In this document: positions 40,732 to 48,066 of the stretch, one piece after another
Layout: each line of letters begins with the position of its first letter
Position numbering within the stretch: the stretch's first letter is position 1
Assembly: GCA_007375595.1 (NCBI GenBank)
Contig: VMEP01000001.1
Coordinates: forward strand, 178,816 to 242,815
Direction: 5' to 3'
Length of the DNA: 64,000 bases
DNA from: Parcubacteria group bacterium LiPW_30
Lineage (GTDB): Bacteria > Patescibacteriota > Minisyncoccia > Phycocordibacterales > VMEP01
Position numbers and translations under genes: made by a program
Notes under the pieces: generated by a model
What the model saw: only the letters and a program-made list of their open reading frames with translations
The model's database searches: none
Told to the model about the DNA's origin: nothing

Positions 40732-41655
40732 ATGACTCAAGATCTAAAGAGTTTAAAACAACAATTTCTTGAATATATTGAAATTGAACGTGGAAGAAGC
40801 TTAAAAACTGTTCGTAATTACGATGCTTATCTCGAGCGTTTTCTTACTCAAACAAACGCTAAATATCCAAAAGATATAACTGATGATTCCATAAGGGAAT
40901 TTCGTCTTTGGTTGAATAGACAAGAAGGTCGTCGCGAGCGTGGAATGAGTGCGGGAACGTTAAAAAAGAAAACCCAAAACTATTATTTGATTGCTTTACG
41001 TATTTTTCTTAAATATTTAATGAAAAGAGGTATCGAAGCTCTTTCCCCTGATCGTATTGAGCTTGCAAAGGTGGCAGAGAGGTCCCTTGATCTTATTTCT
41101 TTAGATGAATTAGAGCGATTACTTAAAGCTCCTGATGGCGAGGATTTAAAAAGCTTACGAGATAAGGCTATTTTAGAATTACTTTTCTCAACAGGGCTTC
41201 GTGTTTCGGAACTTTGCTCTCTTCCTCGTGATATTGATCTTCGCAAAGATGAATTTTCGGTACGAGGAAAAGGAGAAAAAGTACGGGTTGTCTTTCTTTC
41301 CGATTCAGCAAAAGAAGCAATTAAAAAATATTTAGCAAAGCGAGGAGATATGGAGGATGTTCTTTTTATTGGAACAGGAAGCGTTGGAAAAAAGAAAGGA
41401 GAAATAACACACCTAACGACCCGTTCGGTTGAAAGAATCGTTGCGCAATATGCAATTAAGGCCGGTATCTCAAAAAAAGTAACCCCACACGTTATCAGAC
41501 ACTCATTTGCCACAGACCTACTTGGTAATGGGGCAGATATTCGTTCTGTTCAAATGATGCTTGGGCATGCCAGTATTTCAACCACACAGATTTACACGCA
41601 CGTAACTGACAAGGCTCTCAGAGAAATACATAAGAAGTTCCACTCTAAAAAATAG
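40732..41655 (+). CDS. XerC/XerD-family tyrosine recombinase
   Basis: RDKAILELLFSTGLRVSEL, GKGEKVR, TPHVIRHSFAT, LGHASISTTQIY. Confidence 0.95.
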   Translation: MTQDLKSLKQQFLEYIEIERGRSLKTVRNYDAYLERFLTQTNAKYPKDITDDSIREFRLWLNRQEGRRERGMSAGTLKKKTQNYYLIALRIFLKYLMKRGIEALSPDRIELAKVAERSLDLISLDELERLLKAPDGEDLKSLRDKAILELLFSTGLRVSELCSLPRDIDLRKDEFSVRGKGEKVRVVFLSDSAKEAIKKYLAKRGDMEDVLFIGTGSVGKKKGEITHLTTRSVERIVAQYAIKAGISKKVTPHVIRHSFATDLLGNGADIRSVQMMLGHASISTTQIYTHVTDKALREIHKKFHSKK

Positions 41656-42994: not shown

Positions 42995-44464
42995 TTATTT
43001 TACCCAATGCTTTTTTCTTATCTCAGAGACTTCTTTTGATTCCTCCTCTTCTTTTTTAGCTTTTCCTTCCTCTCCCAACTTCTTTAGCTCTTCAATTGAG
43101 AGTTTTATCAGCTCAACTGAACGTTTTTCTAGATATTCAGTCGTATTTCTTTCTGGTTCATCAAGTACTTCCTCAAGTAGGGCATGTAAAACATAACCTA
43201 TTTTAGGGCCTGGAGTTTCATGTGTAACTTCCATAATACGTTTCCCGTCTATTTTTAACATAGCAACCGATATCGGCGCACGCATTGCTTCTTCAATCAT
43301 AGACTCATATTTTCTAAGCCGATACGGGGTCTCTTTTGGTCTTCCCATGCCGATACGGTCGCAGGCGCGAAGTTTCATTAAATCCCAAACATGTTCTGGC
43401 CCAACGTTTTTTACGATACGCCTTACTGCCGATAAGGTTATTTTGTCTACATCTGAGAAAAATAAATGGTAACGCACTAACTTTGAAACAACATCTACGA
43501 TTTCTCGTGGAAAACGCATTCTTTCAAGAATTTTTTTTGTTACACGTGAACCAACGACATCATGTCCATAGAAGGTGTAATCTTTCTTTTCGTCAGACCA
43601 ACGACGTGTTTCAGGCTTAGAAACATCATGAAATAGAGCAGAAAGTCTCACGTGTAACGGCCATTCACGATCTGCTGAGTGTTGCAACGCCCTTAGGTTA
43701 TGCTCCCAAACGTCATAGATATGGTCACCATTCTGTTTAACATTAATCCCCGCTTCTGTTTCAGGTGAAACATATTTAAGAATACCAAGCCGATTAGCTA
43801 AAACTATTCCAATCATTGGGTTTGGAGACATAATCAATTTAATGAATTCATCACGAATACGCTCCTGAGCAATTTTACCGAGGTTTTTAACGTTATTTTC
43901 CAAGGCTTTTTCGGTCTCATTGTTAATCATGAAACCTAATTCAGTAGCTAGTCTGATAGCTCTGAGGACACGAAGGGCATCTTCTGCAAATCTTTCTTCT
44001 GGATTACCAACAGCCCTGATAACTTTGTCCTTTATATCTTTTTGTCCGTTATACGGATCAACAATTTGTCCTTTAGTAATATCATAGGCGATTGCGTTTA
44101 TAGTGAAGTCTCGTCGCTTTAAATCATCTTCTAGGTTTTTACTAAAAACAACTGAATCTGGTCTGCGGTAGTCGCTATATTTTCCCTCAATTCGATATGG
44201 GGTTATTTCAACCACCTTTAAAGATTCATCTTCAGTATTTTCGTTCACAACACCAACTGTTCCATATTCATTTTCATAAAATGTTTTTGGAAAGATTTTG
44301 ATAATATCTTCCGGTCTTGCATTAGTTGTGAAATCCCAGTCTTTTGGTTTTCTTCCCGCCAACACATCACGAACACAACCTCCAACTAGATATGCTTCAA
44401 AACCAGCTTTTTCCAAAGATTCGCTTATGGCGCCTATGTTTTCTGGAATATTTTCCGGTTTCAT
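42995..44464 (-). CDS. cca: CCA tRNA nucleotidyltransferase with HD domain
   Basis: YLVGGCVRD, DWDFTT, DLKRRDFTINA, EDALRVLRA, LFHDVSK. Confidence 0.9.
   Translation of the reverse strand: MKPENIPENIGAISESLEKAGFEAYLVGGCVRDVLAGRKPKDWDFTTNARPEDIIKIFPKTFYENEYGTVGVVNENTEDESLKVVEITPYRIEGKYSDYRRPDSVVFSKNLEDDLKRRDFTINAIAYDITKGQIVDPYNGQKDIKDKVIRAVGNPEERFAEDALRVLRAIRLATELGFMINNETEKALENNVKNLGKIAQERIRDEFIKLIMSPNPMIGIVLANRLGILKYVSPETEAGINVKQNGDHIYDVWEHNLRALQHSADREWPLHVRLSALFHDVSKPETRRWSDEKKDYTFYGHDVVGSRVTKKILERMRFPREIVDVVSKLVRYHLFFSDVDKITLSAVRRIVKNVGPEHVWDLMKLRACDRIGMGRPKETPYRLRKYESMIEEAMRAPISVAMLKIDGKRIMEVTHETPGPKIGYVLHALLEEVLDEPERNTTEYLEKRSVELIKLSIEELKKLGEEGKAKKEEEESKEVSEIRKKHWVK
43538..43553. promoter_or_regulatory. 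parS-like site inside cca
   Basis: TGTTACACGTGAACCA, 15/16 match to TGTTNCACGTGAAACA. Confidence 0.6.
43757..43772. promoter_or_regulatory. parS-like site inside cca
   Basis: TGTTTCAGGTGAAACA, 15/16 match to consensus. Confidence 0.6.
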
Positions 44465-44528: not shown

Positions 44529-44600
44529 GCCCCCGTAGTGAAATGGATATCACGACAGTCTTCGAAACTGTTATTCCAGGTTCGAATCCTGGCAGGGGCA
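44529..44600 (+). tRNA. tRNA-Arg(UCG), CCA not encoded
   Basis: Cloverleaf; anticodon arm ACAGT-CTTCGAA-ACTGT; T arm CCAGG-TTCGAAT-CCTGG. Confidence 0.93.
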
Positions 44601-44725
44601 TATGAATATGCCCCTGCCAGGATTCGAAAGCCGGAGCGCGACGGTGCGAGGCGGGGCTGCGCAAAAATTCAGCAGAATTTTATGCGTAGCCGAATCACTT
44701 TGTTTATAAGTCGTGACCGAATCCT
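44601..44725 (+). repeat. tRNA-3'-associated structured element (Arg copy)
   Basis: Inverted copy of the tRNA 3' end (44607-44628), conserved core, ending GTGACCGAATCCT. Confidence 0.85.
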
Positions 44726-44775
44726 TGTTTTATTTGAACTTATCTTAATCTCTGTTAAAATACGTCGATAAAAAT

Positions 44776-44846
44776 GCGGGTATGGTTTAGTGGTAGAACA
44801 CGTCCTTGCCAAGGATGAGACGGGAGTTCGATTCTCCCTACCCGCA
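44776..44846 (+). tRNA. tRNA-Gly(GCC), CCA not encoded
   Basis: GCGGGTA/TACCCGC acceptor stem; CGTCC-TTGCCAA-GGATG; GGGAG-TTCGATT-CTCCC. Confidence 0.95.
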
Positions 44847-44995
44847 CAAAATTAAAATAACCCGTCTTTAAGACGGGTTATTTTAATTTTTGCAGAGGGA
44901 GAATCGAAAGCCGGAGCGCGACGGTGCGAGGCGGGCTTAATTGCGATAAGTGAAACAATTGAGAGACGGAGGCTGACGAGCCGAGTTGGGGTCGC
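44847..44995 (+). repeat. tRNA-3'-associated structured element (Gly-GCC copy, 3'-truncated)
   Basis: Hairpin, partial inverted tRNA 3' end, and 99 bp identical to 47339-47437. Confidence 0.85.
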
Positions 44996-45204
44996 TAATA
45001 TTACGGACAATTTTTCACATAAATGAGCATATTTTGTAAAGAGTAATCTTATAAAAATAAGGCTAAAATAGGTCAAAAGTGGGGATAAGTCGGGGGACAA
45101 TGTTAATAAGAGACACTAAAATTGTCCAAGAAAAAGACCTTTAAATGCTCTAAAACGGCTTTAAATAAGGATATATTGTCTTTTTCCACAGAAACTGTTT
45201 ATAA

Positions 45205-45220
45205 AGTTTCACGTGAAACT
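45205..45220. promoter_or_regulatory. parS site
   Basis: Perfect palindrome AGTTTCACGTGAAACT with the full parS core. Confidence 0.7.
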
Positions 45221-45255
45221 AAAAAGGTGTTTATTTTGGTATATAATCATATTTG

Positions 45256-45672
45256 ATGGATTCAAAAGTATTGAAAAATAAGGAGAGGCAACAGGTTGGT
45301 AGACTTGGGGAAGATATTGCTTGTCGCTTTTTAGAAGAAAAAGGTTTCAGTGTTATTGATAGAAATTACAGAAAGTTTATTGGAGAAATAGACATTATTG
45401 CCAAAAAGGACAAAATTTTATACTTTGTTGAAGTAAAAACTGTTTCTCGTGAAAACTTCAAAGAAGGTGAAAGTGGGCCAACTTCTCAGTATAGGGCTGA
45501 GGATAATATTCATCCACAAAAGTTAAAGCGCTTAAGCAGAGCAATTAACTCCTATCTTTCAGAAAAAGTGGGAAATGTTGATTATGTTTGGCAATGCGAT
45601 GCGATTATTGTTAATTTATTCACTGCTAACAAGATTGCAAAAGTTAAATATTTAGAAAATATTTTTGCGTAA
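45256..45672 (+). CDS. YraN family endonuclease-like protein
   Basis: GRLGEDIACRFL, RNYR..GEIDII, FVEVKT. Confidence 0.92.
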   Translation: MDSKVLKNKERQQVGRLGEDIACRFLEEKGFSVIDRNYRKFIGEIDIIAKKDKILYFVEVKTVSRENFKEGESGPTSQYRAEDNIHPQKLKRLSRAINSYLSEKVGNVDYVWQCDAIIVNLFTANKIAKVKYLENIFA

Positions 45673-45729
45673 TTTTTTGTTTTTTGTGATAGGATTGATA
45701 AATTGTCGGATTGGAGGGGTTTGTTTTTA

Positions 45730-45800
45730 CGGGGTGTAGTATAGAGGTAGTACGTCTGCTTTGGGAGCAGATAGCCCGAGTTCGATTCTCGGCACCCCGA
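45730..45800 (+). tRNA. tRNA-Pro(UGG), CCA not encoded
   Basis: CGGGGTG/CACCCCG acceptor stem; TCTGC-TTTGGGA-GCAGA; CCGAG-TTCGATT-CTCGG. Confidence 0.95.
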
Positions 45801-45956
45801 ATGTAGCGAAGCATAGTGAGGGTTGAGCGAATGAACTGCTTCATTCGCGTCCGGAATCGAAAGCCGGAGCATGTCGCTCTGCGACAGCGAGGCGGGGTCG
45901 CGAGTACTTATGAGCAAAGCGAATTGGTAACTCGTGACCGATTCTCGGCACCCCGA
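45801..45956 (+). repeat. tRNA-3'-associated structured element (Pro copy) with 18 bp direct repeat
   Basis: Conserved core; CGATTCTCGGCACCCCGA at 45939-45956 duplicates 45783-45800. Confidence 0.85.
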
Positions 45957-45973
45957 CAATGTAACTAAAGTTT

Positions 45974-47128
45974 TTAATTTGTCTCACTGATCAATAAGAA
46001 CATTAGTGGGATAGATAGATTTTCACGAAAATCTTTTTGAATCAAATCCAAGTCTTGTGAAATAAATTCATTTAAGTTTTTTCCGGTTTCATTCTCTATT
46101 TTTCTATTAATATGACCAGGTGTAATAGCAAATAATTCTCTGGTGTTTGTTTCTTTTGTTTCTGTGCTTGTTGTAATAATTCCTTCAAGTTTCCCAGTTG
46201 AACGATTGACCACCGCTCCACCAGAAGATCCTTGCTGAGAAAGAATGTTTCCTTCAATTGAAATAATGTCTAGTAAAGCACCATCATGGAAGTTATATAA
46301 TTCTTTAATAACACCGATACTTGAGGTAAGAAAAAGATTTGTTTGAATTGTTACACCGCCTAAAAACCCAGCAGGGTAAGCAGAAATTAAGACAGGAAGG
46401 CCACGCAATACATTTTCTGGGTCTATGTTTGGCTCGAGATAGGGGAAGGTGAGTGGTAATTGTTTTCCGTCTGTTGTCCCAACAACACGAAGAAGGGCGA
46501 AATCGTCTTCACCTGTGCCAGTTGGCTTTTCTTGTTTGATAACTTTTGAATTTTCGGTTACCCATTTTTTTGAGACATAGATAGGTTCAATCAAAAAAGC
46601 TGGTGAAGCAGGGGAGCCTTGTCTTGCGATACAGGTTATATAATTTTTTACTCCGTAATCACGAAGTAGGAAGTATTGTCCAATGTGGGCATTTGTTAGA
46701 ATAACTCCTTTATCGCTAATAAAGACCCCACTTCCCGATAATGGCTTGAAATCGCCACCATTTTGAGTGGTACAAAGGATATTAACAATAGTACTGCGGG
46801 TTAGTGCATTCAGTGGTTCAAGAGGGAGAATTTCAAGCGTAATGGTGCGTGGGCTTGTGGAGGCGATAGCGATTGGTTCTGTTTTACTTACAGTTGTTGT
46901 TTTTAGATTTTTTGGGGTCGTTGTTGCGGTTTTTTTAAGTGAGTTTATGGTCGTTGTTCCTTTTTCTATTGATGATGTAATTTTGGGAGAATTGTTTTCG
47001 GTTTTTATTATATTAAGTGGTGTTGTTTGTATTTCTTTTTGAGTGTTGTGTATAGGGAATACCGAAAAAACCCCGGCGATGATGCCAATTATGGTGTTTT
47101 TTAAAATAATTCCTAAGGTTTCAAGCAT
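45974..47128 (-). CDS. Membrane-anchored trypsin-like serine protease
   Basis: GSGVFI, LTNAHI, DFALL, QGSSGG; Thr-rich linker. Confidence 0.88.
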   Translation of the reverse strand: MLETLGIILKNTIIGIIAGVFSVFPIHNTQKEIQTTPLNIIKTENNSPKITSSIEKGTTTINSLKKTATTTPKNLKTTTVSKTEPIAIASTSPRTITLEILPLEPLNALTRSTIVNILCTTQNGGDFKPLSGSGVFISDKGVILTNAHIGQYFLLRDYGVKNYITCIARQGSPASPAFLIEPIYVSKKWVTENSKVIKQEKPTGTGEDDFALLRVVGTTDGKQLPLTFPYLEPNIDPENVLRGLPVLISAYPAGFLGGVTIQTNLFLTSSIGVIKELYNFHDGALLDIISIEGNILSQQGSSGGAVVNRSTGKLEGIITTSTETKETNTRELFAITPGHINRKIENETGKNLNEFISQDLDLIQKDFRENLSIPLMFLLISETN

Positions 47129-47223
47129 TGATTTGTTGCTTCGTGATAAGTTTACTAAATATTACCTTATCTGATAATATGTCGGATACATAGTTTGCCA
47201 CTAAAGTGAGCATACTCGGGCAA

Positions 47224-47294
47224 GCGGGATTAGTTAAATGGTATAACTCCAGTTTTCCAAACTGGTGTCGGGAGTTCGATTCTCCCATCCCGCA
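47224..47294 (+). tRNA. tRNA-Gly(UCC), CCA not encoded
   Basis: GCGGGAT/ATCCCGC acceptor stem; CCAGT-TTTCCAA-ACTGG; GGGAG-TTCGATT-CTCCC. Confidence 0.95.
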
Positions 47295-47473
47295 CTGAAT
47301 TTTAACAAAACTAACTAAGGTTAGTTTTGTTGCGGGATGGGAGAATCGAAAGCCGGAGCGCGACGGTGCGAGGCGGGCTTAATTGCGATAAGTGAAACAA
47401 TTGAGAGACGGAGGCTGACGAGCCGAGTTGGGGTCGCCGAAGCAAATTATCCGTGACCGATTCCCATCCCGCA
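47295..47473 (+). repeat. tRNA-3'-associated structured element (Gly-UCC copy, complete)
   Basis: Hairpin, perfect 20 bp inverted tRNA 3' end (47331-47350), core, and near-perfect direct copy (47458-47473). Confidence 0.88.
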
Positions 47474-47529
47474 CAAAAAAATAAAAAACCGCATTCATGC
47501 GGTCTTTTATTTTTAGAGATGAGTGAATG

Positions 47530-47802: not shown

Positions 47803-48000
47803 TTTTTTAAGTAGCTACTTAAACGATTAATAATGCTCGACCGAGTTTTATTATGGTCATACACGCGTATGAACCGCCTTAAGACCACGCAAACATTATA
47901 TATCAGGCCGTTTTTTAGGCAACAGCAATAAAGCAACAAAAGGTTATTGGTTGAAAAATGGGGAAGAAAAAATTGAAAAAGGGGAACAATTGGGGTGATA

Positions 48001-48048
48001 TTCTACAACAAAAAAACTAGGAGTGCTCCTAGTTTTTTTGTTGTAGAA
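48001..48048. terminator. Long hairpin terminator after rny
   Basis: TTCTACAACAAAAAAACTAGGAG/CTCCTAGTTTTTTTGTTGTAGAA. Confidence 0.7.
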
Positions 48049-48066
48049 TATAGGTTTTTTGACTTT

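Follow-up and report, generated by a model that had tools for sequence, protein, structure and literature searches.

Cassettes carrying an antisense copy of their own target behind the tRNA genes of Parcubacteria group bacterium LiPW_30

Genomic islands that integrate into tRNA genes are flanked by attL and attR; the crossover takes place in the T-loop, the 3' end of the tRNA gene is restored, and the old 3' end is displaced. In a stretch of 64,000 nucleotides from Parcubacteria group bacterium LiPW_30 (assembly GCA_007375595.1, contig VMEP01000001.1, positions 178,816 to 242,815 of the forward strand; the whole stretch is hereafter called the window), each of four tRNA genes, namely tRNA-Arg(UCG), tRNA-Gly(GCC), tRNA-Pro(UGG), and tRNA-Gly(UCC), is followed by a small cassette composed of a spacer hairpin, an antisense arm, a two-hairpin cap, and a direct copy of the tRNA 3' end, in that order. 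Like the tRNA-integrating islands, the cassette loci have a restored 3' end and a displaced old one; unlike the islands, the cassettes are gene-less inserts of 100-200 bp that have no integrase within, carry an inverted copy of the att core, and occupy many tRNA species per genome.

Among the known systems closest to the cassettes are the SRM repeats of the Ssn system and the CGTC-tagged REPs, which share with them the DNA hairpins on one strand, the mosaic clusters, and the small stand-alone GIY-YIG genes nearby (PMC11893778, PMC3733652). SsnA is a GIY-YIG nuclease specific to hairpins of one strand, cutting that strand only and a few bases 5' of the hairpin (PMC11893778). Unlike the cassettes, however, SRMs have no target-derived arm, no tRNA target, and no 3'-end duplication, and tRNA is not mentioned in the main text on Ssn (PMC11893778). 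The published degenerate motif of SRM matched none of the window cassettes, two unrelated sites genome-wide, and 1 of 143 GIY-YIG flanks; also, the caps are not found on both sides of GIY-YIG genes as SRMs are. Another GIY-YIG enzyme, SegB of phage T4, recognizes a T-arm motif of many tRNA genes and leaves 2-nt 3' overhangs (PMC2330249), and an enzyme of the SegB type drives homing or amplification via recombination (PMC2330249, PMC13096335). The 2-nt offset of the antisense arm described below would fit such an overhang, but the position of the cut differs; SegB, which possesses a separate DNA-binding domain, cuts duplex DNA after CCA instead of at 55|56, and it leaves neither an inverted arm nor a hairpin cap.

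With integron attC/IntI and CTX attP, in turn, the cassettes share the folded strand, the imperfect inverted repeat, the insertion at a fixed bond, the arrays, and the cargo genes (PMC4792948). Integron cassettes differ in that ours have no IntI and no R/L boxes, and their stem is the host target itself, rewritten per tRNA. The consensus of attC boxes is RYYYAAC...GTTRRRY; such boxes are absent from the cassettes, in which the stem ends are tRNA-derived and the junction reads GAC|CRA. Furthermore, quasi-palindrome template switching (PMC5941160) explains perfect arms including a copied acceptor-stem mispair, but it accounts for none of the cap, the fixed position of the junction, and the duplication. 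Among described repeat families, none is known to bear its target in antisense and to have this copy rewritten for each tRNA. At both gathering and E-value thresholds, Rfam matched nothing but tRNA in the cassettes, and no description of the cassette family was found in a literature search that ran mostly without subscription papers and supplements (including the genome tables on Ssn). Resemblances by eye to the hammerhead, to group I/II intron domains, to the K-turn, and to bridge RNA were rejected, the core motifs of these RNAs being absent or varying. We regard the cassette as new; this judgment rests on the architecture and on the cassette falling outside SRM/REP, attC, IS200/605, and integrase islands.

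The four cassettes of the window

All four tRNA genes were located at the expected positions by ARAGORN and Rfam, and their cassettes lie, as they do, on the plus strand. The antisense arm is the reverse complement of the tRNA 3' end and terminates opposite T54; the cap comprises hairpin 1, interrupted by a GGA/GA internal loop, then a G-rich linker, and then hairpin 2, which closes on GTGAC; and the direct copy downstream of the cap starts at C56 of the tRNA. Fold z-scores of the tRNA-arm hairpins are -8 to -10 at three loci and -1.2 at Pro, and no open reading frame besides short spurious ones lies within the four cassettes. An earlier note, made from the letters of this stretch, had described the arms, core, and direct copies (the last absent at Gly-GCC) after the four tRNAs as a shared architecture with no open reading frame inside, and had taken it for a non-autonomous, tRNA-targeting mini-element of no family that it recognized; on all these points, our analysis agrees with it.

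Behind tRNA-Arg(UCG) (44529..44600, T54 at 44581), the spacer and arm occupy 44601..44628. The 20-nt arm (44609-44628) belongs to a perfect 23-bp fold-back of the tRNA 3' end to T54, in which even the mispaired A67 is copied, as had been noted before. The cap, with its hairpin 1 containing the GGA/GA internal loop and its hairpin 2, runs together with a first short direct copy from C56 over 44629..44696, and the right end of an older, second unit remains at 44697..44725. The Arg locus is thus composed of two nested units, one ending at 44690|44691 with a 6-bp copy (44691-44696) and the remnant ending at 44717|44718 with an 8-bp copy (44718-44725); the 8-bp copy previously assigned to the cassette does exist but belongs to the remnant. 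In genome G001, the direct copy at Arg is longer than in the window.

tRNA-Gly(GCC) (44776..44847) is followed by a 21-bp palindromic spacer and a 13-nt arm (44896-44908), together 44848..44908, and by a cap (44909..44995), with 99 nt identical to the Gly-UCC unit, the right end of which is missing in this assembly. The junction at 44995-44996 is unsupported by the contigs of four other runs, all of which have extra letters there, and in those of three of the four, from other studies, a right end followed by a direct copy of the cognate tRNA precedes 44996. The absence of a direct copy, correctly read by the earlier note from this assembly, is therefore peculiar to it and reflects a strain deletion or a collapsed repeat, the latter possibly with the Gly-UCC unit.

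At tRNA-Pro(UGG) (45730..45800), the stretch 45801..45861 holds a spacer with a C-GAA-G triloop and an arm that is not the 8-nt remnant it had been taken for; it is bipartite, with a decayed acceptor-strand part, an inserted hairpin M1 (45826-45850), and an 11-nt T-arm part lacking one base (45851-45861). The cap, again of two hairpins and ending with GTGAC, is at 45862..45938 and an 18-bp direct copy from C56 at 45939..45956. Finally, tRNA-Gly(UCC) (47224..47295) is filled in genome G002 and empty in G001 and G003. Its spacer hairpin and 20-nt arm (47331-47350) span 47296..47350, its cap (47351..47457) is compound with hairpin 1 twice, an extra module, and hairpin 2 ending with GTGAC, and its direct copy from C56 (47458..47474) has a 2-nt deletion near positions 60-62. 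A terminator-like hairpin follows at 47477..47514; judging from similar hairpins directly 3' of the tRNA in empty relatives, it is likely the ancestral terminator of the empty site.

Extent, junction, and fold of the cassette

The cassette is not the four-copy feature it first appeared to be, given that it is genome-wide and class-wide. In the 0.78-Mb genome of LiPW_30, it follows 25 of the 43 tRNA/tmRNA genes by an automated rule and 28 by eye. The cap pattern was found in 57 of 301 genomes of the class (a reverse-pattern control in 6 of 301) and at no fewer than 120 loci in species-representative genomes, while a stricter pattern hit 10 of 251 genomes of the phylum, six of the ten within the class. 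A tRNA or tmRNA lies at most 400 nt upstream in 86 of 121 cap matches. The matches listed (80 titles) are mostly from Patescibacteria, with five from Elusimicrobia and one from Gammaproteobacteria; in five Elusimicrobia metagenome-assembled genomes of 2.5-3 Mb, 12 of 15 cap matches are complete tRNA cassettes, and viral contigs gave no match to the full cap pattern. Since other cap sequences are present with the same arm-and-copy layout, the counts based on the cap pattern are lower bounds. The targets comprise some 20 tRNA species, tmRNA, and other RNAs.

One of the sequences targeted by the cap is a conserved non-tRNA sequence, seen with a 63-bp duplication at G000:C7 about 423450-423800 on the minus strand (L317) and also at L179, L194, L247, L266, L294, L367, L409, and L437; it has no Rfam match and is possibly an undescribed RNA. 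Also, sister palindromic elements with copy-specific stems and common hairpin modules occur at G000:C7 near 181661, 279279, 310889, 418000, 569485, and 628172, several of them just upstream of promoter-like sequences. At G000:C7:65917-66163, tRNA-Ser(GGA) is followed by a second copy with its 5' part split by a hairpin insert, and the ARAGORN calls "Stop(tta)" and "Ile(tat)" (G000:C7:172901-172974 and 291767-291841), whose 3' ends resemble tRNA-Lys, are probably miscalled anticodons.

Insertion occurs at the T55|C56 bond of tRNA/tmRNA genes. Among 333 RNA genes collected independently of the cap pattern, an arm was present in 90; the direct copy could be traced in 40, and in 33 of these it started at 56. 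In each of the 113 T-loop cases, the arm extends to exactly 2 nt 5' of the junction, a figure partly fixed by the search pattern and the invariant TT; the same overshoot is nonetheless found in 11 of 13 non-T-loop junctions (acceptor ends and a conserved RNA-like target) with other dinucleotides, several of these being related to each other, and the offset was measurable for 126 of 237 caps. As for the downstream copies, 70 of 154 are perfect duplications of 18 bp, 12 have substitutions, 31 have indels, 34 have lost the acceptor part, and seven start elsewhere; at some loci, the duplication extends into the spacer. The first indel falls at 57-61 in 23 of the 31 indel-bearing copies (p = 3e-7, overstated as p-values are here by related loci that are not independent), and eight are a covarying mini-hairpin.

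The arms follow their tRNAs well beyond the window, in agreement with the earlier note. For the 83 of the 120 cap-pattern loci above with a T-loop locatable within 130 nt, the identity of the arm to cognate positions 59-65 is 5.35 of 7, compared with 3.60 after shuffling and a maximum of 4.01 in 2000 shuffles. Similarly, the downstream copy scores 24.1 against its cognate tRNA versus 10.5 when shuffled, and the arms follow the T-loop variants R57 and C55. Sheared G.A pairs are favored in a context of the purine-59 type and, like C-GNA-G triloops, are stable in DNA; a tandem G.A variant of the arm opposite G57-A58 occurs at 15 of 26 tRNAs with a purine at 59 and at none of 38 with a pyrimidine, one row that lacks an arm being excluded from the corresponding test. 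The arms are often inherited with the cassette and then kept under structural constraint, as this variant illustrates. Where an optional inserted hairpin interrupts the arm, it does so behind exactly 11 arm bases in 19 of 24 cases. Of 154 loci folded with DNA parameters, 121 have the arm paired with the upstream tRNA copy and three have it paired with the downstream copy.

By direct pair counts, a base pair of hairpin 1, of which the search pattern constrained only the 3' partner, is Watson-Crick in 147 of 154 loci (C-G in 85, G-C in 35, and A-T in 27), confirming the earlier impression that the stems change in sequence while keeping their pairing. Hairpin 2 also covaries, in an independent set, with a G.T wobble in 15 of 17. 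The structure is that of the sense strand: C-GNA-G triloops on 4-bp stems number 21 in sense and one in antisense (1.1 in shuffles), no UUCG loop was found in the same loop count, and the caps fold with -19.6 in sense versus -14.7 in antisense. An asymmetry between G.T and A.C in the arms and spacer hairpins reached no significance. Taken together, the triloops, the covarying stems, the 11-nt register, and the cluster of indels at 57-61 point to a selected single-strand fold.

Alleles and retargeting

Cassettes are gained, lost, and swapped between close relatives. Among four congeners, both filled and empty alleles were identified by eye (the automated labels err) at a minimum of 11 tRNAs, namely Cys, Trp, fMet, Tyr, Phe, Ala-UGC, Glu-UUC, Ser-CGA, Gly-UCC, Gly-GCC, and a Lys gene, so that the empty alleles for which the earlier note proposed to look do exist. 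At Trp and Ala-UGC, the flank directly 3' of the tRNA in the empty allele stands after the direct copy in the filled allele. In this respect, the downstream copy behaves like the former 3' end of the tRNA gene, displaced by the insert. Because of this, and because the arms are often inherited with the cassette, the earlier idea that the element copies its target into both flanks at each insertion is not supported as stated.

Modules are exchanged as well. One spacer and cap are found at three Leu genes and, in G003, at Tyr with a fully rewritten arm (20 of 20), and non-cognate arms are present at Leu-GAG in LiPW_30 and at Gly-GCC in G003. In one run of the same species, the Arg locus has the tRNA and flank of the window but a spacer of the G003 type with an inserted hairpin; in one such run, Gly-UCC has a different spacer. 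Such same-species alleles, seen in the contigs of four studies, are what one would expect from modules that are brought in by recombination, with template switching then perfecting the arms (PMC5941160); the pair at Arg supports the template-switch synthesis suggested earlier. Furthermore, tandem arrays of unlike cassettes and cassettes bracketing cargo genes occur, as at L363, L380, and L400; the cargo genes at L380:2461-3276 and L400:2732-3082, between the tRNA and the right end of the distal cassette, match no Pfam family.

Mechanism, rival explanations, and significance

How the cassette moves can be considered from these features. In the mechanism that we favor and to which we would give an even chance, the mobile form of the cassette would be a single strand of DNA in its folded state, with the upstream 3' end masked by the arm, and a nick together with host recombination would achieve the insertion. 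By tying up the upstream 3' end, the arm would let positions 1-55 of the tRNA abut the downstream 56-73, and the folded insert would look like an empty tRNA gene with a looped-out branched hairpin. A single-strand end could be supplied by a trans-acting, cap-reading nuclease (GIY-YIG being the candidate) or by a replication or transformation intermediate, with a 2-nt stagger at the junction, and host recombination or replication would copy the looped-out cassette into the empty allele, so that the old 3' end comes to lie downstream. Spacers and caps might then be swapped by gene conversion, ectopic or horizontal, between the tRNA and cap anchors, and the arm might be rewritten by quasi-palindrome template switching to match its new tRNA. 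The insert would be lost again by slippage across this fold unless the downstream copy is scarred; where it carries indels at 57-61, precise excision would yield a broken tRNA and thereby lock the insert in. Masking most simply accounts for an arm that has to match its tRNA, that stops at T54, and that pairs preferentially with the upstream copy; a protein reader is suggested by the conservation of the cap and by the 11-nt register.

As such a reader, small stand-alone GIY-YIG nucleases appear to be the best candidate, as a lead and not a result, with SsnA (PMC11893778) and SegB (PMC2330249) as precedents. Of the small GIY-YIG open reading frames in the class, 83 of 143 adjoin tRNA/tmRNA genes, and 36 members of one clade of 43 lie just 3' of them; in LiPW_30, three of five such genes adjoin a tRNA or tmRNA, and a fourth is within an RNase-P-like RNA. 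At L508, a GIY-YIG gene sits within a cassette having a cognate arm, cap, and direct copy. The proteins match only GIY-YIG in Pfam, with UPF0213 1zg2 as the nearest solved structure, and the tRNA-linked genes have their own hairpins and short arms, constituting a parallel family. Meanwhile, clustering of the open reading frames beside 123 metagenome caps gave only syntenic housekeeping neighbors, and searches of the LiPW_30 genome for Y1, RVT_1, resolvase, and tyrosine recombinase gave no gene linked to caps; of the partners suggested in the earlier note, neither Y1, nor a reverse transcriptase, nor a recombinase (here of the integron type) is supported.

Several observations weigh against the folded-strand mechanism or its nuclease. 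No circle or precise-excision joint was present among the matches listed (contigs of other runs only). There is no replication-orientation bias, 13 of 27 co-directional and 12 of 16 head-on genes carrying a cassette with the origin guessed from GC skew. The preference of the arm for the upstream copy is equal under RNA parameters and on the antisense strand, and thus picks neither DNA nor a strand; mismatches in the arms have no wobble bias (15 G.T and 13 A.C). Tetraloops of the AGCA/ANYA type (32 in sense and none in antisense) and GNRA loops (12 versus 2) blur a clean DNA reading. Locking of the insert must be optional, as 70 of 154 downstream copies are intact. On the side of the enzyme, seven of 50 small GIY-YIG genes lying 3' of tRNA/tmRNA are inside a cassette, which is about the background of right ends after any tRNA (33-40 of 333), and at L508 part of the nuclease unit recurs downstream as a duplication, which is how a passenger would behave. 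By genome, the tRNA-linked clade is no more frequent with the cap (17 of 57 cap-positive genomes versus 78 of 301, p = 0.5; 4 of 21 for the strict clade, p = 1), a GIY-YIG gene was detected by hidden Markov model (HMM) in the fetched flank of only 2 of 241 cap loci, many flanks being short, and the five small GIY-YIG proteins of LiPW_30 fall outside the tRNA-linked clade in a quick tree of 87 columns.

A bolder form of the folded-strand mechanism, which we hold only tentatively, would make the cassette a self-programming, DNA-guided element: the cap would be the handle of GIY-YIG and the arm a rewritable single-stranded DNA guide for any stable RNA gene, cut 2 nt inside its end, with template switching reprogramming the guide and scars in the downstream copy rendering the insert addictive. 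In this form, it would be a natural programmable integration system of about 150 bp and an 80-aa protein, one that would also build gene arrays behind tRNAs in minimal genomes.

The remaining GIY-YIG loci are described here in their own right. An 83-aa GIY-YIG gene (G000:C7:360072-360269; L473:1492-1743) lies in the loop of a 12-bp stem of what we take, by eye and from a motif, to be an RNase-P-like RNA, with no Rfam match at gathering, and another is found in the 5' part of a 16S rRNA gene (L482:1400-1988), where the Rfam SSU match spans it. At L471, L494, L496, L500, L402, L531, L640, and L641, there are mirror-type units, also in Elusimicrobia, which open with an incomplete duplicate of a tRNA 5' end, accompanied by a hairpin, and continue with a GIY-YIG gene and then the intact tRNA. 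An 80-aa GIY-YIG clade directly 3' of tRNA/tmRNA (L505-L534, L551, and L558) is accompanied by hairpins of its own and by short arms directed at the acceptor end, some members showing a 13-bp duplication from position 61. In the window, the tRNA cluster is neighbored by a CCA-adding/poly(A) polymerase family enzyme with an HD domain (42995-44464), YraN (45253-45672), and a trypsin-like peptidase (45974-47128). A perfect 26-bp inverted repeat with a 2-nt loop is at 47998-48051, between an HU-like and an RNase Y-like gene, both named from their translations.

Among the alternatives to the folded-strand mechanism, the one that survives best is recombination of the attC/CTX kind, in which a dumbbell-shaped single-stranded circle of 3' end copy, spacer, arm, and cap would be recombined into the T-loop by a tyrosine recombinase, e.g., a XerA-like one, through one strand exchange resolved by replication. 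The geometry equals that of an integron cassette after insertion, the family includes tandem arrays as well as cargo genes, bulges and mini-hairpins at a fixed distance resemble extrahelical features, and single-strand recombination is described for attC and CTX, the latter via host XerCD (PMC4792948). A XerA-like recombinase is encoded at 40732-41655, 2.9 kb upstream of the cassettes. This protein is nonetheless XerA/XerD-like, scoring 133 bits versus the cut-off of 265 for TIGR02249, and an integron integrase was rejected on the score of this one protein, the genome having two other, short recombinases on small contigs. The usual overlap of a tyrosine recombinase is not a 2-nt offset, as is seen at the junction, and the arm prefers the upstream copy instead of an attC-type partner copy; the lack of a circle joint among the matches listed and of an orientation bias counts against this route, too. 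We therefore consider it unlikely.

Improbable as well is a host-serving RNA element, for which the 3' trailer of the pre-tRNA would refold, the arm pairing with the tRNA 3' half or the downstream decoy, and would tune processing, termination, or decay. All structure being on the transcribed-sense strand, the targets being stable RNA genes in either replication orientation, and the wobble pairs, AGCA/ANYA-type tetraloops, and GNRA loops would be consistent with RNA. Patchy and fast turnover at single-copy essential tRNAs and a 3'-end duplication at a fixed internal bond are, however, not what such an element would show, nor are the DNA-type triloops with no UUCG, the nested relics, and the cargo genes.

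We see only a slim chance for a REP/REPIN-like element that relies on an HUH (Y1/RAYT) transposase for its movement and gains its arms later by template switching. The mosaic hairpin modules, the one-strand structure, and one Y1 gene in the LiPW_30 genome would suit it; unlike in IS200/IS605, PATE, and REP-RAYT, however, Y1 does not co-occur (3 of 10 cap-positive genomes versus 114 of 251 overall), and the terminal GTGAC is paired and is thus not a free guide. Peel-and-paste does not produce a target duplication of 18 bp or more, as is found in the cassettes. Very improbable is retro-homing, i.e., reverse transcription of a read-through transcript into a nicked T-loop; tRNA ends are classical primers, and the sense-strand structure and 3'-end duplication would fit, but no RVT_1 match was obtained in the 18 contigs of LiPW_30 despite at least 25 copies in turnover, and the +2 rule holds at non-T-loop junctions, too. 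Chance or an assembly artefact, for which the unsupported right end at Gly-GCC might speak, is already refuted for the family by hundreds of independent loci with covariation (240 with the same architecture, plus contigs of four other studies) and by the reverse-pattern control.

In conclusion, the cassettes are present at most tRNA genes of a 0.78-Mb genome, show turnover within a species, occur on both sides of a phylum boundary, and are able to enclose cargo genes. They may therefore be a main way in which Patescibacteria gain and rearrange genes. If the proposed mechanism is true, they would represent a programmable mechanism of single-strand integration and provide a function for many uncharacterized small GIY-YIG proteins.

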